Below, piece by piece: positions 6,563-41,435 of a stretch of DNA of 61,359 nt. The position numbers were made by a program, and so were the translations under genes. This DNA comes from Candidatus Bipolaricaulia bacterium (lineage in GTDB: Bacteria; Bipolaricaulota; Bipolaricaulia; RBG-16-55-9; DRXL01): contig JBKBIX010000001.1 in NCBI GenBank assembly GCA_046293845.1, positions 1 through 61,359 of the forward strand, given 5' to 3'. Below the pieces are notes generated by a model. It did not search any database. It saw only the letters and a list, made by a program, of their open reading frames with translations, and was not told the DNA's origin. Position 1 is the first letter of the stretch. Each line of letters starts with the position of its first letter.

Positions 6563-7117
6563 TCAAAACTCCGTCCCCAGCCGCGCCTTGATCCCTCGAT
6601 CAAACGGATGCTTGATCTTGCGCACTTCAGTCACTAAGTCGGCGATCTCCTCGATCTCCAGCAGTCTCTTGTGGCTGCCCGTGAGCACACACTCGGTCTT
6701 CGGCGCTTTGCCCTTGACAACTTCAATCAAAGCTTCAGACGAGATCACGCCCATCTGCACGGCATAGAGACATTCGTCAACGATGACCATATCGTACTCT
6801 CCTGAAGAGAGCGCCCGCGCCGTCGCTTCGAGAGCTTTGCGCCCAGCTTCGATGTGCCCTTCTGTGGGCTTCCCAATCAACCATTCGGGCATCCCGTAGC
6901 GCTCAAACGAAAAATTCTCAAAGCGCTTGAGGGCTTTCAGTTCGCCGTACTCTTCAAACGCCTCGACGCCTGTGATCCCGCCCTTCAAGAACTGAATCAA
7001 GTGCACGCGAAAGCCCCGCCCCAGCGCGCGCAACGCCATCCCTAGCGCTGCCGTCGTCTTGCCCTTGCCATCCCCCCACCACATCTGCACTAAGCCCATC
7101 TCGCTTTTGAGCTCCAT
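6563..7117 (-). CDS. cobO: Cob(I)yrinic acid a,c-diamide adenosyltransferase (CobO/BtuR type)
   Basis: P-loop GDGKGKTTAA, and a C-terminal KHPFDRGIKARLG motif typical of CobA/CobO. Confidence 0.9.
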   Translation of the reverse strand: MELKSEMGLVQMWWGDGKGKTTAALGMALRALGRGFRVHLIQFLKGGITGVEAFEEYGELKALKRFENFSFERYGMPEWLIGKPTEGHIEAGRKALEATARALSSGEYDMVIVDECLYAVQMGVISSEALIEVVKGKAPKTECVLTGSHKRLLEIEEIADLVTEVRKIKHPFDRGIKARLGTEF

Positions 7118-7127
7118 AGTTCCTCCT

Positions 7128-8036
7128 CTAGAATCGCATCATCGTCCCCGCGGGCGCCAGCCCAGAGAAGATCCCCGGGTGAACGATCTCCCCTAAGATC
7201 TCTAAGCCCGTCACGATCCGCGGTCCCGGCCTGTTGAAATACGCCGACGCCTCGACTATGAAGACTTGGTTCTCTTTCACAGCTGTCAGCTCCTCCCAGC
7301 CCTCAAGCCCTGTTAAGAGATCGAGCTCTCTAAGGGTGCGCTCGATGGAAAACCCGCAGGGCATCAACACAATAATGTCCGGGTTGTAGTTGAGGATCTC
7401 TTCCCAATCGGCATAGCGGGAGGGCTGGCCGACCTCACCCAGCCAATCCTCGCCCCCGGCGTATTCGACCATCTGCGGCACCCAGTGCCCCGCAATCATG
7501 AGGGGCTCAAGCCACTCGATGCAGCAGACCTTCGGACGATCCGCAACATCTTCTGTCTGTGCGCGCACGCGCTCGATACGCTGCTGGAGCTGCGCCACAA
7601 GCTGCCGCGCGCGCTCCTCTGTGCCGGATACCTCCCCAACCATCAAGACAGTATCGAGGATATCTTCGAGGGTATGCGGCTCCAGCGAGACGATCTGGGG
7701 CTGCCCGCGCAAGAGCTTGACGGCTTGTCGCACATCATCGAACGAGGGCGCGCAGACCTCGCACAGCTCCTGCGTCAAGATCAGATCGGGGTTGAGTTTC
7801 TGTAACAGCTCAGCGTCAATATGATAGACGCTCAAGCCACTATGGAGTCTCTCACGCACGATCTGATCGATCTCGGCGCTGGGCATATCAGAGTGCACGA
7901 CCGCTTGGCTGAGCTTAGGTTTTTTCAAGACTTCAGGGGGCCAGTCGCAGTCGTGCGAGACCCCAACTAATCTGTCCCCCAAGCCCAGCTCGTAAACGAT
8001 CTCAGTTGCGCTTGGCAGTAACGAGATGATCCTCAT
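7128..8036 (-). CDS. BtuF-like cobalamin/iron-complex binding protein with no signal peptide
   Basis: N-terminus MRIISLLPSATEIVYELGLGDRLVGVSHDCDWP resembles the class III periplasmic-binding fold. No hydrophobic leader is present. There is an ATGA start/stop overlap with the upstream ATPase gene. Confidence 0.75.
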   Translation of the reverse strand: MRIISLLPSATEIVYELGLGDRLVGVSHDCDWPPEVLKKPKLSQAVVHSDMPSAEIDQIVRERLHSGLSVYHIDAELLQKLNPDLILTQELCEVCAPSFDDVRQAVKLLRGQPQIVSLEPHTLEDILDTVLMVGEVSGTEERARQLVAQLQQRIERVRAQTEDVADRPKVCCIEWLEPLMIAGHWVPQMVEYAGGEDWLGEVGQPSRYADWEEILNYNPDIIVLMPCGFSIERTLRELDLLTGLEGWEELTAVKENQVFIVEASAYFNRPGPRIVTGLEILGEIVHPGIFSGLAPAGTMMRF

Positions 8037-27163: not shown

Positions 27164-27625
27164 TTAGAGCAGCAACTCAGCTGCAGGCCCCTCGACGAGA
27201 TTCTCACAGTAGTGACACCGCATGACCAGAGGGCCTCGACTCTCTACCGTCAGGTAGGGGACGACTCGCTCAGTGCTGTTCGTGATGCAATTGCGATTGG
27301 GGCAGCGAATAATGCCGATCAACTCTTCTGGAAGCTCCACGTGAATTTTCTCCGTAACTTTCATGTCTTTGATGATATTGACTGTCGCTTGGGGAGCGAC
27401 GATGGCGATCTTTTTCACGGTCTCGGCTTCCAAGGCGCGATTCTCCACTTTGACCATATCTTTCAAGCCCAAGCGATTGCTCCGGACGTTCATCGCCACG
27501 ATAACCGTATCAGAACAACCGCGCTCGATCCCTAAGATCTTCAAGACCGCTGGAGCCATCCCCGCGGTGATGTGATCAATCACGGTGCCGTTCTTGATTT
27601 TTGAGACTTTCAGTTCTCCGTTCAT
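27164..27625 (-). CDS. pyrI: Aspartate carbamoyltransferase regulatory subunit
   Basis: KVSKIKNGTVIDHI, and a C-terminal zinc cluster CPNRNC...CHYC. Confidence 0.9.
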   Translation of the reverse strand: MNGELKVSKIKNGTVIDHITAGMAPAVLKILGIERGCSDTVIVAMNVRSNRLGLKDMVKVENRALEAETVKKIAIVAPQATVNIIKDMKVTEKIHVELPEELIGIIRCPNRNCITNSTERVVPYLTVESRGPLVMRCHYCENLVEGPAAELLL

Positions 27626-27630
27626 AGCCG

Positions 27631-28560
<930 letters not shown>

Positions 28561-29390: not shown

Positions 29391-29509
29391 CCCAGGCAGC
29401 GACCTACTCTTGCGGGCCCTCACGAGCCCACTACCATCGGCGCGGGCGGGCTTAACGGCCGTGTTCGGGATGGGAACGGGTGTTTCCCCGCCGCTATTGG
29501 GCCACCTGG
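29391..29509 (-). rRNA. rrf: 5S ribosomal RNA
   Basis: The reverse complement reads CCAGGTGGCC..CCCGTTCCCATCCCGAACACGGCCGTTAAGCC..GCGCCGATGGTAGTGGG..GCTGCCTGGG, with canonical 5S motifs and a terminal helix. Confidence 0.9.
29427..29445. repeat. 19-bp direct repeat, right copy (inside the 5S rRNA gene)
   Basis: Identical to 28627-28645, exactly 800 bp away. Confidence 0.8.
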
Positions 29510-29603: not shown

Positions 29604-30030
29604 GTCGCGCAAACGACGGAGCGATTAGGACCGCTCGGCTGAGCGCATTGCTGCGCGTACACCTGCGGCCTATCAACCTGGTGTTCTCCCAGGGCTCTCA
29701 GAGGCCTCATCTTGGGGTGGGCTTCACGCTTAGATGCCTTCAGCGTTTATCCCGTCCGGACCTAGCTACCCAGCGGTGCCCTTGGCAGGACAGCTGGTAC
29801 ACCAGAGGTCCAGCCCTCCCGGTCCTCTCGTACTAGGGAGAGCGCCCCTCAAGCCTCTTGCGCTCGCGGCGGATATGGACCGACCTGTCTTGCGACGGTC
29901 TGAACCCAGCTCACGTAACTCTTTAACCGGCGAACAGACGGACCCTTGGGACCTGCTTCAGCCCCAGGATGAGTTGAGCCGACATCGAGGTGCCGAACAC
30001 CGCCGTCGATGTGTACTCTCGGGCGGTACT

Positions 30031-30061
<31 letters not shown>

Positions 30062-30556
30062 ATGATCGATGGCCCTTCCACACAGAGCCACCGGGTCACT
30101 TGGGCCTGCTTTCGCACCTGTTCCCCCTGTCGGGGTCACAGTCAAGCCGGCTTGTGCCCATGCACTCCCCGCCGGATCGCCAACCCGGCTGAGCCGACCT
30201 TTGCGCGCCTCCGTTACTCTTTGGGAGGCAACCGCCCCAGTTAAACTGTCCACCTAGCACGGTCCCCCGGCTGCTGTACAGCCGTAGGTTAGAGTCGCAA
30301 CGCTCGAAGGGTGGTATTTCAAGGACGCCTCCATCCCCGCTAGCGCGGAGACTTCTCCGGCTCCCACCTATCCTACACAACAAGCGTCGAGACCCAATGC
30401 CAAGTTCCAGTAAAGCTCCACGGGGTCTTTCCGTCCTGCCGCGAGTCACCGGCGTTTTCACCGGTGCTTCAATTTCACCGAGCCCATGGTCAAGACAGCG
30501 CTGGGATAGTTATACCATTCATGCGCGTCGGAACTTACCCGACAAGGAATTTCGCT

Positions 30557-31256
30557 CAGGCTGTTACTTTGGTGACCTTGCTGTTAGGCAAGGCGGTCTG
30601 ACGCGAGTCAGACTCTGCACGTCGCCGTGCAGCTCGGACTGTATCTTCGTCTTCTGAGTAGATTGTCTCTATTCAGAAGAGCCCGGCGTACAGTCTCTGA
30701 GGATGCTGAAGATCTCCGACTGTTCATCTGCTGAATGATCTGCCTGATCTCTGCTAGTCCTTCGTTCGTGAGATGCTTTCGCTCTTTCATGAGCTCCAGC
30801 ACTTGGACGAATTTCCCGAATTCTTCAGCTTTAGCTGTTCGCAGCTTGTTATGCTGGAAGAATGGAACTATTTTTGTCTGTAAATCTTCCAACGAACGGA
30901 CGCAGTAGCGATACAAGTTTTCCGTGTGATTGTCGTATCGCCGATTGACGTAGATGCGTCCGCAGCCGAAGAACTCTTGTAGGACTCGCAGAGCCTGTAG
31001 GCTGCGCTCTCCTTGAGTTACGACGAACTCAGGGAAAACTTGCCATCCACTGCTCGTCGACGGATTCTTAAGAATGCTTACAGAAAAGCATCCTTCACCA
31101 TCGACGAACCCAGTGATCCAGCCCTCGATCTTCAGCCTTTCCTGCTGGTTGTCTGCACCCATCGCATTTTCACCTTCGTAATTGTAGCTGAAGGTAGCGT
31201 GGGATACTAACCAGAGTTTCCAGCATATAGCCGGGTTTTACTAAGGCTTGCGTAAA
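30557..31256 (-). mobile_element. Group I intron in 23S rRNA (E. coli ~1931 site) carrying a homing-endonuclease ORF
   Basis: The flanking exons join to CCGTCCTAAGGT|AGCGAAATTCCTTGTCGGGTAAGTTCCGAC, matching the universal sequence. The intron segment GCCTTAG can pair with exon CTAAGGT, with a G-U at the splice site. The intron ends in G. Confidence 0.8.
30608..31162 (-). CDS. Single-motif LAGLIDADG homing endonuclease (I-CreI/I-CpaI-like), intron-encoded
   Basis: 184 aa with the motif WITGFVDGEGCFSV. The AAGGTGA RBS lies 7 nt before the ATG. GC content is lower than in the flanking rDNA. Confidence 0.85.
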   Translation of the reverse strand: MGADNQQERLKIEGWITGFVDGEGCFSVSILKNPSTSSGWQVFPEFVVTQGERSLQALRVLQEFFGCGRIYVNRRYDNHTENLYRYCVRSLEDLQTKIVPFFQHNKLRTAKAEEFGKFVQVLELMKERKHLTNEGLAEIRQIIQQMNSRRSSASSETVRRALLNRDNLLRRRRYSPSCTATCRV

Positions 31257-33375
31257 ACCTTAGGACGGTTATAGTTACCGCCGGCCTTCGCTAGGGCTTC
31301 AGTTTGGGGCGTAAACCCCTCCCCTTAACCTTCCAGCAGTGGCCAGGTCTCACACCCTATACGTCCTCTTTCGAGTTAGCAGGGTGCTGTGTTTTTGATA
31401 AACAGTCTCCCCAGCCTGCTCTCTGCGGCCCCCTCGGACATCGCTGCCCTACACGGGGCCTCCCTTCTTGCGAACGTACGGGAGCATTTTGCCGAGTTCC
31501 TTGACCATGGTTCTCTCGCCCACCTGAGCATACTCTGCCCGCCTACCTGTGTCGGATTGCGGTACGGGCTCTGTGCGGCTCCCTAGAGGCTTTTCTCGGC
31601 ACCTGATCGCTCTTCCTTCGGTCCCGTAGGACCTCCGTCTCGGCTCGACTTAACCCGGCTGCGGATTTGCCTACAGCCGGACGCCTCGCCTGTGACACGG
31701 GCACATCCGTCCGCCCGCTGAAGCGACCTGATGCACTTCCCCTTGGTCACCGCCGCACAGAGGGGCCGGAATATTAACCGGCTCTCCATCGCCTACCCCT
31801 TGCGGGTTGAGCTTAGGGCCGCCTAACCCTGGGTGGATGAGCCTTCCCCAGGAACCCTGAGGCATACGGTGGGTGAGTTTCTCGCTCACCTCGCGCTACT
31901 CATTCCTGCATTCTCTCTTCCGCTTCGTCCGCCGTGGCTTGCGCCACGACTTCGGCCTAAGGCGGAATGCTCCTCTACCGCCAGGCTTCGCCTGGACCAT
32001 ACATCGTGCCGCCTGAAGGCGGCACGGCGCACAGTCCAGACGGAGTCTGGCCCGTGGCTTCGGCGCCGAGCTTAACTCCCGCTGAATCTTGGGCGCACTC
32101 TCGCTCGACTGGTGAGCTATTACGCACTCTTTAAAGGATGGCTGCTTCTAAGCCAACCTCCCAGCTGTCTGAGCAAAAGCACATCCTTCCTGACTTAGCT
32201 CGGTCTTTGGGGCCTTAGCCGACGATCTGGGCCGTTTCCCCCTCGACGATAAAGGTTATCCCCTACCGTCTGACTCCCGGCAGGTACGCCGTGGTATTCG
32301 GAGTTTGGTTGGAATTGGGTTGCCCCGCATCCATCCAGTGGCTCTACCCCCACGGCTTAACTGCCGAGGCTAGTCCCAAAACTATTTCGAGGAGAACAAG
32401 CTATCACCGAGGCCCGTCTGGCTTTTCACCGCTACCCACGACTCATCCCAGAACTATTCCACGTTCACGGGTTCGGCCCTCCACGTGGTGTTACCCACGC
32501 TTCAGCCTGGTCATGGGTAGATCGCCCGGCTTCGTGCCTACCGCACGTGACTGATCGCCCTGTTCGGACTCGCTTTCGCTGCGGCTGCGCCCCACTGACG
32601 AGGCTTAGCCTGTGCCACGCACGGTAGCTCGCAGGATCATACTGCAAAAGGCATGCCGTCAGGCCGCCGGCTCTGTCGTTGGGCATCTTGCGACGCCCAG
32701 GACAAAGGGTCGGCGGGACCCTCCGACTGTCTGTGAGCGGATGGTTTCAGGTTCTGTTTCACTCCCCTTCCGGGGTTCTTTTCACCTTTCCCTTGCGGTA
32801 CTAGTCCACTATCGGTCAGCTGGTAGTATTTAGCCTTGGAAGGTGGTCCTCCCAGCTTCACGCCGTAACACGGGTACGACGCTACTTAGGAACGGCCCAC
32901 AGTCGCTTGTCCTTTCGCCTACGGGACTATCACCCTCTCTGGTCGCTCTTTCCAGTGACTTTACTAGCTGTTCGGCTAGGACTCACGAATCTGTATGATG
33001 GGCCGCCCTGCAACCCCCTTCTATAGAGATAGAAGGGTTTAGGCTGTTCCGCGTTCGCTCGCCGCTACTGACGGAATCTCCAAAGCCATCTCCCCTGCCC
33101 TCTTACTAAGAGTGCAGAAGAGATAGCTTTGTATCTTTTGATTTCTTTTCCTCGGGGTACTGAGATGCTTCACTTCCCCCGGTTCGCCTCTCTCCCTTAT
33201 GGATTGGGGGAGAGATACCGCACCTTCCGTGCGGTGGGTTTACCCCATTCGGAGATCCGCGGATCAACGCCTGCTCGACGGCTCCCCGCGGCTTATCGCA
33301 GTCTGCCACGTCCTTCATCGCCTCCAGCTGCCAAGGCATCCACCATCCGCCCGTACTGAGTTTGCGCGATGTGAT

Positions 33376-33516: not shown

Positions 33517-33903
33517 CTAGCTCCCAGAAGAACTGTTGTGAGGATCACCGTCCTCGTCAAGTCGCACTGGGGCGTCTCCCCACAGCCCTTCTAAATCATA
33601 GAAGCGTCGCAGCTCCTTCTGAAAGATATGCACAATGACGTCCCCGTAGTCTAACACGATCCAATTTTTGGACTCCCACCCCTCAGAACGCACCACTTGG
33701 TGGGGGAGCTTCTCTAAAATATTGTCGGCGATCGCTTTGACGTGCTTGGGGTTGTCCCCGTGCGTAATAACAAAGAAGTCTGTGGGGATGGAAAACCCGC
33801 GCATGTCTAAAATCACGGTCTCCTCGCCCTTCTTCTCCGCGATGAGCGCGAGGAGCTCCCGCAGGGTCTTCTCCGTATCGAGTTCGAGAGCTGGAAGCTT
33901 CAT
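33517..33903 (-). CDS. rsfS: Ribosome silencing factor
   Basis: Motifs FVITHGDNPKHVKAIADNI, WIVLDYGDVIVHIF and R.FYDLE.LW. Confidence 0.9.
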   Translation of the reverse strand: MKLPALELDTEKTLRELLALIAEKKGEETVILDMRGFSIPTDFFVITHGDNPKHVKAIADNILEKLPHQVVRSEGWESKNWIVLDYGDVIVHIFQKELRRFYDLEGLWGDAPVRLDEDGDPHNSSSGS

Positions 33904-35341: not shown

Positions 35342-37408
35342 GTGGAAAGCATCGTGCGCGAGATCACGCGAGAACTCAGAGAGTCCCAAGTCCGTGATAA
35401 GTATCGTCCCATTCCGTTCGACGAGTATCTCAGGATGGTCTTCGAGGATCCGCGCTTGGTGCGCAATGCGTACCAGCGTCTCTATGATATGATCCTCAGC
35501 CACGGCACACATATCGCCAAGGTTCACGATAAAGAAGTCATTCGGTATAACTTCTTCGACGACCCCTTCAACAAGGGCGAGGACGCGATCTACGGCATTG
35601 ACGAAGCCCTCAAGAATTTAGTAGATACGCTCAACGCTGCGGCCAAGGGGCTTGGGCCTGACCGCCGTGTGATACTGTTGCACGGGCCGGTGGCCACCAG
35701 CAAGTCTACGATTGGGCGGCTCTTCCGCCGCGGGCTAGAAGAGTATTCGAAGACCGACGACGGGCGGCTCTACACGTTCGAATGGGACGTCTCCGACTTC
35801 GACGACGAGCCGATAGACGTTGTCCCCTGCCCGATCTTCGAGGAGCCTCTGCGGCTCATTCCGCCCGAGCCACGCCAAAAGATCCTCACTGAGATCAACC
35901 GTATCTTCAAAGAGAAGTACCACGGGGAGTACGAGCTGCGCGTCGAGGGCGATCTCTGCCCCAAGTGTCGCTTCTATTTTAATCGCTTCATGCGCTTCTA
36001 TGAAGACGATTTAGAGAAAGTCCTCAAACACGTCACCGTGCGCAGGCTCATCTTGAGCGAGAAGGACCGCCGGGGCATCGCCACGTTCGAGCCCAAAGAC
36101 AAGAAGAACCAAGACGAAGAGGAGCTGACCGGCGGCATGAATTGGCGGCTTGTCCAAGTCTACGGCAGCGACTCTGATCCACGAGCGTTTAATTACGATG
36201 GGGAGCTGTGTGTCGCCAACCGTGGGATCTTTGACGGGGAAGAGTTGCTCAAGCTCCAAGAAGAGTTTCTCTATGACTTCTTGCACGCCACCCAAGAGCA
36301 CGTGATCAAGCCCAAGAAGAACCCGCGCATTGACATTGACACAGTTATTCTGGGGCGCACCAACAACCCCGAATATAAACGGGTCAAGAGCAACGAGAAG
36401 ATGGAGGCGTTCAACGACCGCACGCGCAAGATCGATATCCCTTATGTCTTGCGCAAGTCCGACGAAGAGCGCATCTACAGAAAATTCTTCGGCAAGAACC
36501 GTGTGTGGGGCAAGCACATCGCGCCGCATACGTTAGAGATGGCAGCGCTCTGGGCGGTGCTCACACGATTAGAAGAACCAAACGCGGACATCTCGCTCCT
36601 GCAAAAAGCCAAAATCTATGACGGGGAGTCCATCCCTAATCGCACCGTGGACATCAAGAAGATCATGGAGGAGGCCAAGGGCGAAGAGGGCTTCTTCGGC
36701 GTCAGTCCACGCTACGTGATCGATATGATCAGTAAAGCGTTGGTGAACGACGTCGAGGGATGTATCAATCCCTATCGCGTGCTGGCGACGCTGGAGGACA
36801 ATCTCCCACATCATTCCGGCATCGACGAGAACCGTATCGAAGAGTACAAAGAGTACATTGAGCAAGTCAAGGAAGAGCTGTCGGCGATCTGTCAAGAGGA
36901 AGTCCGGCGCGTCATCAGTCATGACCCCGATGAGCTGCGCCAGGTCGGGCAGAAGTATTTAGATCACGTCATGGCCTACCTCAATGACGAAAAAGTCGAG
37001 GATCGCTATACGGGGGAGGAGATGGAGCCGGACGAAGAATTTATGAGATCTATTGAGAAGCAGATCGGGATCACAGAAGCCCAGAAGGACGACTTCAGAC
37101 AGGAGATTTCCAACTGGATCAGCGAGCGTGCCCGCAAGGGCGAGCCATTCAACCCTGAACAGAACGACCGCTTAAGAAGGGCTTTGGAGAAGAAGCTCTG
37201 GGAGGACAAGAAGCACAATATTAACTTCACGGCGATGGTCAGCGACAAGACGACCGACCCGGAGCACAAGCGGCGCAAGGCCGAGTGGATCGAGCGTCTC
37301 AAGAGCGAGTACGGCTACTGCGACGTCTGCGCGGAGAACGTGATTGACTACGCGGGCGCGGAGGTCGCTCGCGAAGAGCTTGAAGCTCGCGAGAGCCGCA
37401 TGCCGTAA
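35342..37408 (+). CDS. prkA: PrkA family serine protein kinase (AAA+-like N-terminal domain)
   Basis: 688 aa with Walker A-like LHGPVATSKST and PrkA-type C-terminal domains. AGGAGGTGA RBS before GTG 35342. Confidence 0.9.
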   Translation: MESIVREITRELRESQVRDKYRPIPFDEYLRMVFEDPRLVRNAYQRLYDMILSHGTHIAKVHDKEVIRYNFFDDPFNKGEDAIYGIDEALKNLVDTLNAAAKGLGPDRRVILLHGPVATSKSTIGRLFRRGLEEYSKTDDGRLYTFEWDVSDFDDEPIDVVPCPIFEEPLRLIPPEPRQKILTEINRIFKEKYHGEYELRVEGDLCPKCRFYFNRFMRFYEDDLEKVLKHVTVRRLILSEKDRRGIATFEPKDKKNQDEEELTGGMNWRLVQVYGSDSDPRAFNYDGELCVANRGIFDGEELLKLQEEFLYDFLHATQEHVIKPKKNPRIDIDTVILGRTNNPEYKRVKSNEKMEAFNDRTRKIDIPYVLRKSDEERIYRKFFGKNRVWGKHIAPHTLEMAALWAVLTRLEEPNADISLLQKAKIYDGESIPNRTVDIKKIMEEAKGEEGFFGVSPRYVIDMISKALVNDVEGCINPYRVLATLEDNLPHHSGIDENRIEEYKEYIEQVKEELSAICQEEVRRVISHDPDELRQVGQKYLDHVMAYLNDEKVEDRYTGEEMEPDEEFMRSIEKQIGITEAQKDDFRQEISNWISERARKGEPFNPEQNDRLRRALEKKLWEDKKHNINFTAMVSDKTTDPEHKRRKAEWIERLKSEYGYCDVCAENVIDYAGAEVAREELEARESRMP

Positions 37409-37462
37409 CCTCCCTCCCCATTCCCCTCTCCCCTCCGAGGGAGAGGGGCAAGGGGTGAGGGA
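37409..37462. repeat. REP-like palindromic element between prkA and yeaH
   Basis: CCCCTCTCCCCTCCGAGGGAGAGGGGCAAGGGGTGAGGG, nearly identical to the core of the 60160 copy. Confidence 0.75.
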
Positions 37463-37475
37463 GTAGAGCCCGGGA

Positions 37476-38603
37476 GTGATATTAAGTATGCCCAAGCGCA
37501 TCTTGAAGGACTTAGAGCGCTTTAAGAGAATTGTGCGCGGGGAGATCCGCAAGAACCTCAAGGAGCTTATTGAGACCGGCTCGATTGTTGGGCAGAAGGG
37601 CGGAGATATCGTCAGAGTCCCCCTGAAGTCTATTCGCATCCCGCAATTTCGCTATGACCCACACGAGCAGGGGGGTATCGGCGTGGGCGAGGGCGAGATC
37701 GGCGAGCCGATTCAGTTCGATCCCACGCACAGTGGAGACGGCCAAGCAGGCTACGGGCCGGGGCCGCACTTCCGCGAGGTCGAGATCGAAGTCCGCGAGC
37801 TTGCTGAAATCTTGGGCGAAGAGCTGGAGCTGCCCAAGATCGAGCCCAAGGGCCATAAACACGTGCTCAGCGGGAGCGAAGAGTATGAAGACGTCTCGAC
37901 CGTCGGCCCTGAAGCCTTGCTCATGAAGCGCCGGGCCTTTCGGCGGGGGCTGCTGCGCCAGATGCTCATGGGCGCGCCCCTGCGCCCCTCTGATACTGTT
38001 ATCGTTACCCCAATCAAGGAAGACATGCGCTATCTCTACGGCGTTCCCACAGAATCCCCGGAAGCTAATTGCGCCATACTCTTTATGAGGGACGCTTCGG
38101 GGTCTATGTCTGGGGAAAAGACCGAGATCATCCGCCAAGAGAATTGGTGGATCGATCTATGGTTGCGCACCAACTATAAGAACGTGGACAGGGTCTATAT
38201 CTTGCACGACTACGAAGCCCAAGAAGTGAACGAAGATGACTTTTATAGCTTAAGCACCGGTGGGGGCACGCGCATTAGCTCGGCCTATGAGCTGTGCAAC
38301 CGTATTATTGATCGGCGCTACCCCCCAGAGCACTGGAATATCTATGCGTTTCACTTCAGCGATGGGGAGAACTGGATCGGCGACACAGAGAACGCGTGTG
38401 TCCCAATCTTGCGCGATCACCTGCTCCCCAAGGTCAACCTCTTCTGCTATGGGCAAGTAACATTAGGGCGGCGCTCGCCCGGGCTGCACCTTATCAAACT
38501 CAAAGAGCGCCTCGAAGAGCATGACCGTCTGGTCACGTCGATCATCTCGGATCGCGAAGATATTTTACAGTCCATCAAAGAGTTCTTGGGCAAGGGACGG
38601 TAG
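37476..38603 (+). CDS. yeaH: YeaH/YhbH family protein (DUF444, vWA-like)
   Basis: 375 aa with a conserved C-terminal vWA-like region MRDASGSMSGEK...GGGT. The start could be GTG 37476 or ATG 37488. Confidence 0.85.
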   Translation: MILSMPKRILKDLERFKRIVRGEIRKNLKELIETGSIVGQKGGDIVRVPLKSIRIPQFRYDPHEQGGIGVGEGEIGEPIQFDPTHSGDGQAGYGPGPHFREVEIEVRELAEILGEELELPKIEPKGHKHVLSGSEEYEDVSTVGPEALLMKRRAFRRGLLRQMLMGAPLRPSDTVIVTPIKEDMRYLYGVPTESPEANCAILFMRDASGSMSGEKTEIIRQENWWIDLWLRTNYKNVDRVYILHDYEAQEVNEDDFYSLSTGGGTRISSAYELCNRIIDRRYPPEHWNIYAFHFSDGENWIGDTENACVPILRDHLLPKVNLFCYGQVTLGRRSPGLHLIKLKERLEEHDRLVTSIISDREDILQSIKEFLGKGR

Positions 38604-38606
38604 AGC

Positions 38607-41435
38607 ATGATCGGAGCAAAGAAGATCCGTGAGCTTGAGAAACTGCGCGCTGAGGCACGGCGCTTGGTCGAGTCAGTCGGGCTTGACCCCTGGCCGGTGA
38701 TCTTTGGGATTGTAGACCACGACCAGCTCAACGAATACTCTGCCTATGACGGGTTTCCCGAACGCTTCCCCCACTGGTCGTTCGGCATGAGCTATGACTA
38801 TTTCAGAAAGCGTTCGGCGTATTCGGGCTGGTGGACCTATGAGCTGGTGCTGAACACCAACCCGGCTATTGCGTACCTGCGCGAGAGCAACTCCCCTGTA
38901 GAGAACAAAGGGGTGATGATTCACGTCTACGCCCATGTGGACTTCTTCAAGCACAATCGCTGGTTTTCTAAAACCCCTCAAGATATGATTAAAATTATGC
39001 ACACCCACGCCGAACGCATCGAAGAGTATATGAACAAATACGGCATCACTGAAGTCGAATCTTTCATAGACAAGGCGCTCTCGTTGCAGTACGAGATCGA
39101 TCAGTATGCGCCGTTCATCAAGCGTTCGTGGAATCGGGCAGATGTTGAAGAGGATGAGCGCGAGCGGGAGCCAGCGCGCATCCCGGTCAAGCGGGACTAT
39201 ATGGATCGCTTCGTCAATCCTCCGCAATGGCTGGAGGAGCGTCGCGCGAGATTGAAGCAGGCCCGTGAGAAGGCCCGCAAGCTCCGCGATGAAGCCGATT
39301 TAGTCAAACCCCAGAAAGATCTCTTGGGCTTCTTAATGAAGCACGGGCACTTAGAGAACTGGCAAAAAGATATCTTGGCGATGATTCGCGAGGAGTCGTA
39401 CTACTTTGTCCCGCAGATCCAAACGAAGGTCATGAATGAAGGATGGGCCTGCGTCGTCGCGGGCACGCTCGTGTTCACCAACCATGGGCTCGTTCCCATC
39501 GAAGAGATCGTGACAGAGCACAAGACACTGTGGGTCAGTGACGGGGAGCGCTTGAGGAAGATCTATGACTGGGCACGGTTCCCCAATCGGGAGATCATCA
39601 AGCTGCGCACACGGCGCGGCTTAGTGCTCGCTGGCTCGGTTACCCATCAAATTCTCATGGCCGATGGGACGTGGAAGTGCCTTGATGAGGTGAAGATCGG
39701 TGAGAAGATACGGCTGGGAGCAGGCTTGGGCACCTGGGCTCCTCGCTATCTATCCCTGCACTGGACTCCTTCCCAGCGCCTGACCATGCGAGACGTAGCA
39801 GAGCGAGCGGGTGTCTCCGTAGACACAGTGATCCGCTACCGCCGTGGCTGGGCCGTCCGCAACCCTACAGCAATAGCAGCAGTCCTGGCGTTGTATGAAG
39901 AGTCCATAACTGCTGCGGTGCAACAGCATCGCTCCCCCATCCGCGTCCCACCGGTCTTGAATGAAGACCTTGCTGCGTTTTTGGGATATATAGTTGGAGA
40001 TGGGCACATGAGCCGGGTCAAGCGTGTCGTCGGCTTTACCAGCGGGGACTTCGAGCAAGCACAGCGATTCAAGGAATTGGGCCAACGACTCTTCGGCCTA
40101 GCTGGGCGGCTCCAGCGCGATGGTGGGCGCTGGCGAGTCTTGTTCTACTCGCTCAATCTCGTAGATTTTCTGGAATATCTTGGGGTGAAAGTCGGTCGCT
40201 CAGCCCCAGTGAAGGAGATCCCCCCTCTGATCTTGCGCTCCCCCGCCTCGGTCGTCGCAGCGTTTGTGCGCGCCTATTTCGATTGCGATGCCCATGCTGG
40301 CCCTCAAGGGATCATCCTCTCGACCACAAGCGAGTCTTTAGCTCACGTCACTCAACTGATCTTGCTCAACTTTGGGGTGCTATCGCGCCAACGTCGCCAG
40401 AGAGACGGCACCTGGCATCTCCATATTGCAGGGCGCTCAGCGATGGCCTTTCAGGAAAGAATTGGTTTCGGTTTGGAGCGCAAGCGCCAGGCACTCTCGG
40501 ATTATCTCAATGCTCACCGGTTCTTCAAACGAGAGGTCTGGGAAGATGAGATCGTCGCTCTCGAGCGAGGCTACGCCGATGTCTATGACATCTCCGTAGA
40601 AGGTTCTCACAAGTATGCCGCTGCTGGCTTGATCAACCATAACAGCTACTGGCAATCGAAGCTCATGGCCGAGTTCGCCAAGCCCGATGAGTTCATAGAT
40701 CACGCGGACATGATGAGCAAGGTCTTAGCAGGGGGTGCGCTCAACCCCTACGCCCTAGGCAAGCTCATCTGGGAAGACATTAAAGAGCGGTGGGACAAGG
40801 GGCGCTTCGGGCGCGACTGGGAACTGTGTAAAGACCCGCAAAAGAAGAAGAGATGGGACACCAAAGCTCATCTTGGGACAGAAAAAATCTTCGAAGTCCG
40901 GCGCACTTATAATGACGTCACGTTCTTGGCGGAGTTCTTCACAGAAGAGCTGTTTGAAAAGCTCAAACTCTTCGCGTATGAGTATATCCCCGAGACGGGG
41001 GCATATCATATCACGTCGCGGGATTTTGCCGACGTCAAGAAGAAGTTGCTCTTCCAGCACACCAATCTTGGGCGCCCCGTGATCAAGATCGCCACAGGCA
41101 ACTATGGCAACAGGGGCGAACTCTTGCTCTTGCACATGTATAATGGCGTGGGCTTGCACCTGGAGGAAGCCAAAGAAGTCCTCAAGAATATATATTCTAT
41201 GTGGGGCCGGCCGGTCAATCTCAAGACGATCATCAAGAGAAAAGTGAAAGACCCTGACCCCACGCGCAATCGCATCCATCCGGAGCGCCCGCTGACATCT
41301 GTCTATGAGGAGCAAGGGGTCTTGTTGCGCTACGACGGGGAGAGCCTGCGCGAGCTGGCCCTCAGCCCCGACGAAGTGAAAGACATCCGTCTGGAAGAAG
41401 ACTACAGTACGATCCCCAGGGAGTGGATCGGCTAA
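38607..41435 (+). CDS. spoVR: SpoVR family protein containing a 398-aa intein (extein 544 aa)
   Basis: SpoVR-like N- and C-terminal regions. The conserved QTKVMNEGWA / SYWQSKLM motif is interrupted by an insertion that begins with C and ends in HN. Confidence 0.9.
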   Translation: MIGAKKIRELEKLRAEARRLVESVGLDPWPVIFGIVDHDQLNEYSAYDGFPERFPHWSFGMSYDYFRKRSAYSGWWTYELVLNTNPAIAYLRESNSPVENKGVMIHVYAHVDFFKHNRWFSKTPQDMIKIMHTHAERIEEYMNKYGITEVESFIDKALSLQYEIDQYAPFIKRSWNRADVEEDEREREPARIPVKRDYMDRFVNPPQWLEERRARLKQAREKARKLRDEADLVKPQKDLLGFLMKHGHLENWQKDILAMIREESYYFVPQIQTKVMNEGWACVVAGTLVFTNHGLVPIEEIVTEHKTLWVSDGERLRKIYDWARFPNREIIKLRTRRGLVLAGSVTHQILMADGTWKCLDEVKIGEKIRLGAGLGTWAPRYLSLHWTPSQRLTMRDVAERAGVSVDTVIRYRRGWAVRNPTAIAAVLALYEESITAAVQQHRSPIRVPPVLNEDLAAFLGYIVGDGHMSRVKRVVGFTSGDFEQAQRFKELGQRLFGLAGRLQRDGGRWRVLFYSLNLVDFLEYLGVKVGRSAPVKEIPPLILRSPASVVAAFVRAYFDCDAHAGPQGIILSTTSESLAHVTQLILLNFGVLSRQRRQRDGTWHLHIAGRSAMAFQERIGFGLERKRQALSDYLNAHRFFKREVWEDEIVALERGYADVYDISVEGSHKYAAAGLINHNSYWQSKLMAEFAKPDEFIDHADMMSKVLAGGALNPYALGKLIWEDIKERWDKGRFGRDWELCKDPQKKKRWDTKAHLGTEKIFEVRRTYNDVTFLAEFFTEELFEKLKLFAYEYIPETGAYHITSRDFADVKKKLLFQHTNLGRPVIKIATGNYGNRGELLLLHMYNGVGLHLEEAKEVLKNIYSMWGRPVNLKTIIKRKVKDPDPTRNRIHPERPLTSVYEEQGVLLRYDGESLRELALSPDEVKDIRLEEDYSTIPREWIG
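39450..40643 (+). mobile_element. Intein with LAGLIDADG homing-endonuclease domain in SpoVR
   Basis: Block A CVVAGTLVF, block B GSVTHQIL, LAGLIDADG motifs LAAFLGYIVGDGHM and VAAFVRAYFDCDAH, block F VYDISVEGSHKYAA, block G GLINHN, followed by +1 Ser. Confidence 0.9.

Follow-up and report, generated by a model that had tools for sequence, protein, structure and literature searches.

What is the block of 700 nt that interrupts a 23S ribosomal RNA (rRNA) gene in the Bipolaricaulia, and what does it do there? The gene lies in a stretch of 61,359 nt from a Candidatus Bipolaricaulia bacterium (positions 1 to 61,359 of contig JBKBIX010000001.1, assembly GCA_046293845.1; this whole stretch is called the window below). 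A first-pass annotation, made from the letters of the sequence, had read the block as a group I intron that carries its own LAGLIDADG endonuclease gene. The analysis described here makes it very probable that the block, in a Bipolaricaulia 23S gene, belongs to the L1931 lineage of mobile group I introns and carries a homing-endonuclease gene. The analysis establishes the insertion site, the covarying RNA architecture, the family and fold of the endonuclease, the site specificity of the family as a whole, and an empty site in the related metagenome contig L196.

The insertion site

The 23S gene, intron included, occupies 29605..33367 of the minus strand, on which the features of the gene and its intron described below also lie. 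It matches the complete bacterial large-subunit rRNA (LSU) model of Rfam (RF02541, model positions 1-2925) with 2503.6 bits, and the alignment contains a single unaligned block, of ~703 nt, between ...GUCCUA and AGCGAAAUUCC. The claim that the gene is colinear with the universal sequence apart from one 700-nt block was therefore sound. The intron itself is 30557..31256, leaving exon 1 at 33367..31257 and exon 2 at 30556..29605. Read directly from the strand, the 5' exon ends in ...CCGTCCTAAGGT, with its last nucleotide, a U, at 31257; the 3' exon restarts at 30556 with AGCGAAATTCC / AGCGAAATTCCTTGTCGGG; and the last intron nucleotide is G30557, the omega-G. Both terminal nucleotides are those given by the first-pass annotation.

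The exact position in the standard numbering requires a small correction. In the copy of E. coli rrl used for the alignment, the T preceding the insert is nucleotide 1932, and the GUAACUAUAAC uridines fall at 1912, 1916 and 1918. We take these uridines to be the established pseudouridines 1911, 1915 and 1917 of standard E. coli numbering. The copy therefore runs one position ahead, and the canonical site is U1931|A1932, i.e. L1931, as the earlier estimate of ~U1931 had it. Nor is this position a matter of chance. In contigs taken from one genome per species, 150 stretches encode a relative of the intron's open reading frame (ORF), and 80 of these were kept for site analysis; at least 61 of the 80 carry an insert of 675-844 nt exactly at GGT|AGCG, with intron cores that align. 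Homologous introns with their endonuclease genes are thus found between the same two nucleotides in other genomes.

A group I core split by a coding loop

The RNA can be folded into a group I core in which P1 and P3-P9 all have a place. P1 pairs exon CUAAGGU (31263..31257) with the internal guide GCCUUAG (31247..31241; intron nt 10-16) and puts a U-G wobble at the splice site, just as the first-pass annotation had proposed; RNAalifold makes the helix two pairs longer inside the intron. P3 (CCCGGC 31235..31230 with GCCGGG 30687..30682, the 3' strand being within the ORF) follows P1 directly, and the intron has no P2. P4 joins UGCUGG (31225..31220), in the P element, to CCAGCA (31148..31143), in the Q element, where it is read as codons N5-Q6-Q7. 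The P5 domain (31152..31215) is extended. It consists of P5 itself (UCUG 31215..31212 with CAGA 31155..31152), P5a (CCCACGC 31203..31197 with GCGaUGGG 31165..31158, the 3' strand containing the start codon), and P5b (CCUUC 31194..31190 with GAAGG 31177..31173), which is drawn from the window sequence only; an A-rich segment, UGAAAAU, sits between P5b and P5a. The 5' strand of P6 is made up of GGA (31142..31140) and GCUGAAGAUC (31136..31127), which are codons E8-I12, and the 3' strand of GAUCUUCAGC (30714..30705) and UCC (30703..30701), about codons R150-S154. The helix closes a coding loop of ~410 nt.

On the far side of this loop, P7 (GACUGU 30695..30690 with ACAGUC 30642..30637) completes the P3/P7 pseudoknot of the canonical core, its 5' strand being carried by the R element CCUCAGAGACUGUACGCC and its 3' strand by the S element GAAGAUACAGUCC. 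P8 is a hairpin at 30650..30680 with a perfect stem of 8 bp (UCUUCUGA 30680..30673 and UCAGAAGA 30657..30650) and a 15-nt loop, and P9 (CUGCACG-GCGA-CGUGCAG, 30632..30615) has an invariant GCGA loop. Two further hairpins, P9a (GUCUGAC-UCGC-GUCAGAC, 30613..30596) and P9b (CCUUGC-CUAACA-GCAAGG, 30593..30576), would complete the 3' end. All four classical elements are present (P as AUGCUGG and Q as AACCAGCAGG, besides R and S). R and S match Rfam model RF00028 (Intron_gpI), and we take all four to agree with the classical consensus.

A full-length MAFFT alignment of 56 introns was unusable because of the 5' extensions and the ORF, and the structure was therefore examined in mini-introns from which the P6 loop had been cut out (the window and 17 relatives, 18 sequences in all). 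With the window-derived structure projected onto this alignment, 87% of the cells hold standard pairs, compared with 34-44% when the partners are slid by 1-3 columns; 43 of the 71 pairs have changes on both sides, and none of 500 shuffles matched any of these measures. P1 is 100% paired, with the U-G in 18 of 18 sequences and compensatory changes in three pairs. P3, P4, P5 and P9 are likewise 100% paired, with compensatory changes in 5 of the 6 pairs of P3 and 6 of the 7 pairs of P9, P4 being nearly invariant. P5a is 99% paired (6 of 7 pairs compensatory) and P7 93%; in P6, the three proximal pairs are 100% paired and the distal helix 82%, with compensatory changes in nine of its ten pairs. 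P8 and P9a reach only 52% and 44%, because the column mapping is out of register for most relatives. RNAalifold, which does not depend on the projected model, recovers P1, P3, P4, P5, P5a, P6, P8 and P9, with compensatory changes in 42 of 62 pairs, and it finds P8 in all 18 sequences with many such changes. The terminal G is also present in 15 of 18 aligned relatives. Taken with the conserved U-G and terminal G, the covariation of the core helices argues that the RNA structure is under selection.

Two other pairings were considered and set aside. The segment UCAGCA (30709..30704) was tried as the 3' strand of P4; the relatives differ there, and it forms part of the 3' strand of P6. Pairing of UCUGAG in the 5' region with CUCAGA in the R element would break group I topology, CUCAGA being J6/7-P7.

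A complete core of this kind leaves very little room for an intervening sequence that is excised by RNase III without ligation, so that the 23S rRNA is fragmented. Such elements do occur in bacterial 23S genes (PMC11270868). In that survey, however, the insertions consistent with known elements of this type are short and are found at 23IS2 and 23IS4, apart from the group I sites, whereas the block in the window is neither short nor non-coding, contains a ribozyme core, and does not lie at one of the known sites; site, size, ORF and core all fail to fit, and the probability of this explanation is close to nil. Compared with E. coli, the 23S gene of the window is also enlarged at four other places, by 39-55 nt each; these expansions, at E. 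coli ~227, 284, 539 and 1183 (approximately 33137, 33025, 32720 and 32023 in the window), are separate from the intron.

The endonuclease and the ends of its reading frame

The ORF of the intron (30608..31162) starts with ATG, has 184 codons plus a stop, and encodes a single LAGLIDADG_1 domain. Its stop lies 51 nt short of the 3' splice site, and the non-coding part of the intron amounts to 94+51 = 145 nt, which agrees with the ~145 nt counted earlier. The Shine-Dalgarno-like AAGGUGA noted in the first-pass annotation (31170..31176) is indeed present 7 nt before the AUG, where it overlaps the 3' strand of P5b and, to judge from its sequence and spacing, may serve as the ribosome-binding site. 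An out-of-frame AUG at 31165-31167, 5 nt upstream of the endonuclease start, opens a frame of 11 codons (AUG CGA UGG ... UGA) over P5a', P4' and P6; this frame is probably meaningless.

The prediction of a single-motif LAGLIDADG protein, and the profile search proposed along with it, were borne out by Pfam, by sequence matches in the PDB and by fold. Pfam finds one copy of LAGLIDADG_1 (PF00961) at residues 16-121, with E=5.2e-21 and 75.9 bits against a cut-off of 23.1. The motif WITGFVDGEG forms residues 15-24, and G18, F19, D21, G22, E23 and G24, including the conserved acidic residues, are invariant in 16 relatives. The best sequence matches in the PDB are two-domain enzymes of the I-OnuI family (E down to 4e-46), to either half of which the protein aligns; single-domain matches are 5gkk (E=3.2e-29), the I-Vdi141I-like 3e54, and I-CeuI. 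An AlphaFold2 (AF2) model with a predicted template-modelling score (pTM) of 0.67 is confident at residues ~12-150, the first helix being poorly modelled, while residues 1-11 and 151-184 have a predicted local distance difference test (pLDDT) below 50 and are predicted to be disordered. The top fold match of the model is I-TnaI (5gkk), with 41% identity over 129 columns, a root-mean-square deviation (rmsd) of 2.0 A and a target-normalised TM score of 0.75. Foldseek gives a probability of 1.00 to both I-TnaI and the I-OnuI family (rmsd 1.6-2.5 A), so that the LAGLIDADG core fold is present.

I-TnaI, like the window protein, is a single-domain protein of similar length, and from its name and length we take it to be the L1931 enzyme of Thermotoga neapolitana. 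I-OnuI, I-LtrI and I-SmaMI, in contrast, are two-domain monomers from fungal mitochondrial genes. The one-domain protein of the window would have to dimerise.

The first-pass annotation had deduced that the tail of the protein must overlap the ribozyme core. This is true of the tail, but the overlap is not confined to it, since the start and codons 5-13 also lie in P5a, P4 and P6. The ORF in fact splits the core: P1 to the 5' strand of P6 lies upstream of and within the first 13 codons, and the 3' strand of P6 to P9 lies in the last ~35 codons. Codons 1-13 form P5a', P5', P4' and P6, and the codons from ~149 onwards form P6', J6/7, P7, P3', P8, J8/7, P7', P9 and part of P9a. The folded endonuclease domain (~residues 12-150) is encoded wholly in the P6 loop, and the predicted disordered ends of the protein coincide with the stretches that overlap the ribozyme. 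The N-terminal 11-13 and C-terminal ~35 residues, in other words, are ribozyme core read as codons. The third codon positions have the corresponding pattern: in the 18 sequences, the commonest third-position nucleotide has a mean frequency of 0.77 in one overlapped stretch and 0.75 in the other, versus 0.53 in the central ORF, where amino-acid conservation is similar. In the mini-intron alignment, CAGCAGGAAAG does not vary over 11 nt, and neither do UCCUCAGA and ACU in the R element; the CAGCAGGAAAG and UCCUCAGA runs are unchanged at every codon position.

Such an overlap could act as a switch within one RNA: the ribozyme, once folded, would mask the site at which translation begins, and ribosomes moving along the ORF would in turn open up the core; homing would still be under way in this uncultivated lineage. 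The suggestion, which we regard as tentative and rather doubtful, is prompted by the location of the Shine-Dalgarno-like sequence and start codon in the 3' strands of P5b and P5a, of codons 5-13 in P4' and P6, and of the last ~35 codons in P6'-P9. Its second part, ongoing homing, comes from the variable occupancy of positions ~1917, 1931 and ~2263 among close Bipolaricaulia relatives (see below). If the switch were real, only precursor that is unfolded or misfolded, or intron RNA after excision, could be translated into endonuclease, and the dosage of the homing enzyme would be coupled inversely to splicing efficiency inside the rRNA precursor.

Several points weigh against an intact, mobile group I intron and need to be set beside the evidence given so far. 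Rfam scans had been proposed in the first-pass annotation as a check; the LSU model located the site, as described above, but RF00028 gives only 28.8 bits against a gathering score of 50 (E=3.5e-5 in a 1-kb search). The low score can be traced to the ORF, which splits the core and leaves over 400 nt between its 5' half (P1, P3, P4 and P5) and its 3' half, too wide a gap for the model to span. The RF00028 alignment is good for R (J6/7-P7-P3'), P8, S (J8/7-P7') and P9, and group I introns of this kind were accepted at E<=1e-4 in PMC11270868. The same model assigns P3, P4 and P6 to a stretch of the ORF (~30729..30875) where several of the pairs would be non-canonical; P3 at 31235..31230 and P4 at 31225..31220 are preferred, since they pair perfectly with the 3' half and covary. 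A P10 may form between CGC (31252..31250) and GCG of the 3' exon (30555..30553). It was found by inspection of the sequence and would be weak, with 3 bp at most; the relatives have GCU or GUU at this position, immediately 5' of the P1 guide. P9a and P9b are drawn from the window, the alignment being unreliable in that region. A deletion of 3 codons (9 nt) in the 3' strand of P6 is common to the window and its closest relatives. In J8/7, the window has CGA (30649..30647) where 11 of 17 relatives read UGA; relatives in which this UGA is in frame stop there (e.g. L001, L005 and L010), and the window ORF continues for 13 codons past the CGA to a TGA (30610..30608) in P9a, which accounts for its length of 184 codons. 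The tails beyond SSETVRRA vary in frame and length among the relatives, arguing that they are not selected as protein. Finally, splicing and homing of the window intron, and the activity of its endonuclease, are putative, being suggested by conserved structure and by characterised homologues.

The last of these points bears on a further explanation, namely that the intron escapes splicing and remains part of mature 23S rRNA, like the one reported from Simkania. A paper by Everett et al. 1999 bears the title 'An unspliced group I intron in 23S rRNA...' (as cited in PMC11270868), which counts against splicing here, and the Simkania intron is an L1931 intron according to the table in PMC1995217. 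On the other hand, every helix of the catalytic core is maintained across phyla through compensatory changes, and the U-G wobble and the terminal G persist too, a pattern to be expected only under selection on the RNA structure; another title cited in PMC11270868 describes Thermotoga 23S introns as actively self-splicing. Moreover, given the established structure of the ribosome, 700 nt inserted between helices 69 and 71 would come to lie where the two subunits meet. Retention is therefore judged to be very unlikely, and a splicing intron remains the preferred explanation.

Relatives, homing and the host locus

L1931 introns with single-motif LAGLIDADG genes are already known from Thermotoga, Simkania, Synechococcus, organelles and bacteria of the candidate phyla radiation (CPR). 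The published bacterial examples are those of Simkania (654 nt, with a protein of 143 aa), Synechococcus C1 (675 nt, 162 aa) and C9 (666 nt, 167 aa), and three Thermotoga species (698-700 nt, 162 aa) (Haugen et al. 2007, PMC1995217). With a published range of 654-700 nt, the window intron is not 'unusually compact', as it had been called; and ORFs that run into the ribozyme core have likewise been described for bacterial L1931 introns (PMC1995217). The window intron resembles these introns in its site, 700-nt size class and single-motif LAGLIDADG_1 gene, as well as in the missing P2, the extended P5 domain, and an ORF reaching from a peripheral loop into the ribozyme core. It differs from them in its host, a metagenome-assembled genome (MAG) of the Bipolaricaulia (Acetothermia/OP1 lineage), and in its ORF of 184 codons. 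Two features set it apart from the rest of the family and are common only to its closest relatives: a P6 shorter by 9 nt, and a P9a loop of UCGC rather than of GAAA type.

The earlier description of bacterial rRNA introns as rare is also outdated. The ORF product has 4391 homologues at E<=1e-10, the same insertion is found in many phyla, and the 23S genes of CPR bacteria abound in LAGLIDADG_1 insertions at position 1931 (PMC11270868). Hosts of the inserts at GGT|AGCG include Acidobacteriota, Planctomycetota, Actinomycetota, Bipolaricaulota, Omnitrophota and Gemmatimonadota, together with Proteobacteria-type MAGs and many CPR lineages; Bipolaricaulota/Acetothermia are not among the hosts in PMC1995217 or PMC11270868. 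The CPR members compared here are 51-63% identical to the window protein, and many have an extra 5' block that the window intron lacks. About one-third of the L1931 relatives, most of them from CPR genomes, have this block, which takes up the first ~60-150 nt of the intron, ahead of P3, and consists of a long hairpin followed by GGACUAGGAC (e.g. L017, L022-L024, L030, L032, L033 and L040). A few of these introns (L017, L023) are without a terminal G.

One CPR enzyme has been characterised: I-ShaI of Ca. Shapirobacteria, encoded by an insert of 691 nt at site 23IS7 of the 23S gene, cleaves its own insertion site and forms homodimers (PMC11270868). From the order of the site list in that paper, 23IS7 would be position 1931. 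If so, the window intron resembles that of I-ShaI, by its description, in site, in insert size and in the single LAGLIDADG_1 domain, and the ORFs occupy comparable parts of the inserts (83-604 for I-ShaI vs 95-649 for the window).

Close relatives of the window differ in which sites of the 23S gene are occupied. Contig L081 (GCA_964580975.1) shares the gene order PrkA-LytR-RsfS-23S with the window; its L1931 site holds an intron of 684 nt, whose endonuclease is 90% identical to that of the window. The contig also contains a second insert, of 917 nt, near E. coli 2263 (L081:~6900-7850), which carries a LAGLIDADG_2 ORF and has no counterpart in the window. In the metagenome contig L196, whose exons are 89% and 97% identical to those of the window, the L1931 site is empty. 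This contig has a different group I intron of ~740 nt (L196:3975-4722), with a 176-aa LAGLIDADG_1 ORF, ~14 nt upstream of L1931; to judge from P1, in which exon GUAACUAU pairs with guide GUAGUUAC, its insertion point follows U1917. Whichever boundary is chosen, the L196 intron lacks a terminal G (...GAGACA|AACGG), and in this respect it recalls the Coxiella intron without omega-G known from a title cited in PMC11270868. Contig L107 (77-85% exon identity) is intron-less at L1931. A search of the metagenome contigs found no intron-less allele with the exact exon sequence of the window; with a looser junction pattern, at least 120 intron-less junctions were found there, one of them from a close relative.

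According to the established model, homing introns pass through a cycle of gain and loss. The patchwork of presence and absence just described fits the cycle that the model predicts. At one stage, late in this cycle, the ribozyme would go on splicing with an endonuclease gene that is no longer active or is in decay, and the intron would be a resident passenger that is inherited vertically. In L079 and L080 the ORFs are cut to 132 and 128 codons with the ribozyme core intact, and these genes do appear to be decaying. For the window, this explanation could draw on the frame and length of the C-terminal tail, which vary among close relatives, on the CGA that lets the ORF run past the usual UGA in J8/7, on the truncations in L079 and L080, and on the syntenic L081 with the same intron, which suggests vertical descent. 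However, the variable tail is outside the folded domain, and over the whole of that domain the ORF is intact, with all family-invariant residues kept, including GFVDGEG; L196, moreover, shows that close relatives differ in site occupancy. A decaying gene in the window is accordingly unlikely, although it deserves more weight than retention of the intron, and an endonuclease gene that still functions in a mobile intron is favoured.

The comparison with L081 also bears on whether the intron, or the whole rRNA operon, could be an assembly chimera that brings in DNA from another organism of the metagenome. The window is a contig of a MAG, and rRNA regions are prone to misassembly. Yet L081, an independent assembly, has the same gene order and the same-site intron with its closely similar endonuclease, and the exact ORF product is also present on an independent Logan contig; a chimera is thus extremely improbable. 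That Logan contig is the sole record of the exact product. The PrkA, DnaE and SpoVR proteins of the window, in comparison, have accessions MFN42177xx, indicating that the intron ORF was passed over when NCBI annotated the contig.

The surroundings of the gene can be described briefly. A 5S rRNA gene (29391..29509 of the minus strand; RF00001, 95.4 bits) lies downstream of the 23S gene, rsfS (33903..33517) is directly upstream, and pyrB/pyrI (28551..27164) follow downstream. An Rfam scan for 16S and a tRNA scan found no 16S or tRNA gene within the 61-kb window, which together with the flanking rsfS and pyrB/pyrI genes argues that the rRNA genes are unlinked in this genome. A trio of genes for a PrkA kinase, a DUF444 protein and a SpoVR-family protein (35342-41435) adjoins the rRNA locus. 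At 942 aa, the SpoVR-family product appears long for a member of its family.

A model for the intron can be put together from these data. The intron would be transcribed within a 23S-5S precursor, and its RNA would fold into a P2-less group I ribozyme, with the U1931-G wobble displayed in P1, a core pseudoknot made of P3 and P7, P4-P6 and the extended P5 domain as the scaffold, and P9 closed by the invariant GCGA loop. An external guanosine would attack the 5' splice site; G30557 would then take the G site, and ligation of the exons would restore the helix 69-71 junction of the 23S rRNA. The ligated junction would read CCUAAGGU-AGCGAAAU, in the context ...CCGUCCUAAGGU-AGCGAAAUUCC... A homodimer of the endonuclease would cut intron-less 23S genes across CCUAAGGU|AGCGAAAUU (in context, GGCGGTAACTATAACCGTCCTAAGGT-AGCGAAATTCCTTGTCGGGTAAGTTCC), and repair of the break would copy the intron in.

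The window intron is a sound but ordinary member of a widespread family, and known intron biology is unchanged by it. What is new is a host from the Bipolaricaulia, which widens the known range of L1931 rRNA introns, plus small details of the lineage. The analysis supplies a secondary structure, supported by covariation, for an intron family whose score with the Rfam model falls below threshold, and for annotation it means that rRNA introns with a split core of this type can be found by combining the exon junction with the R and S elements. It also provides a clear case of one sequence that serves as both ribozyme core and codons, with the folded domain of the protein encoded in the P6 loop and its disordered ends in the overlapped stretches.

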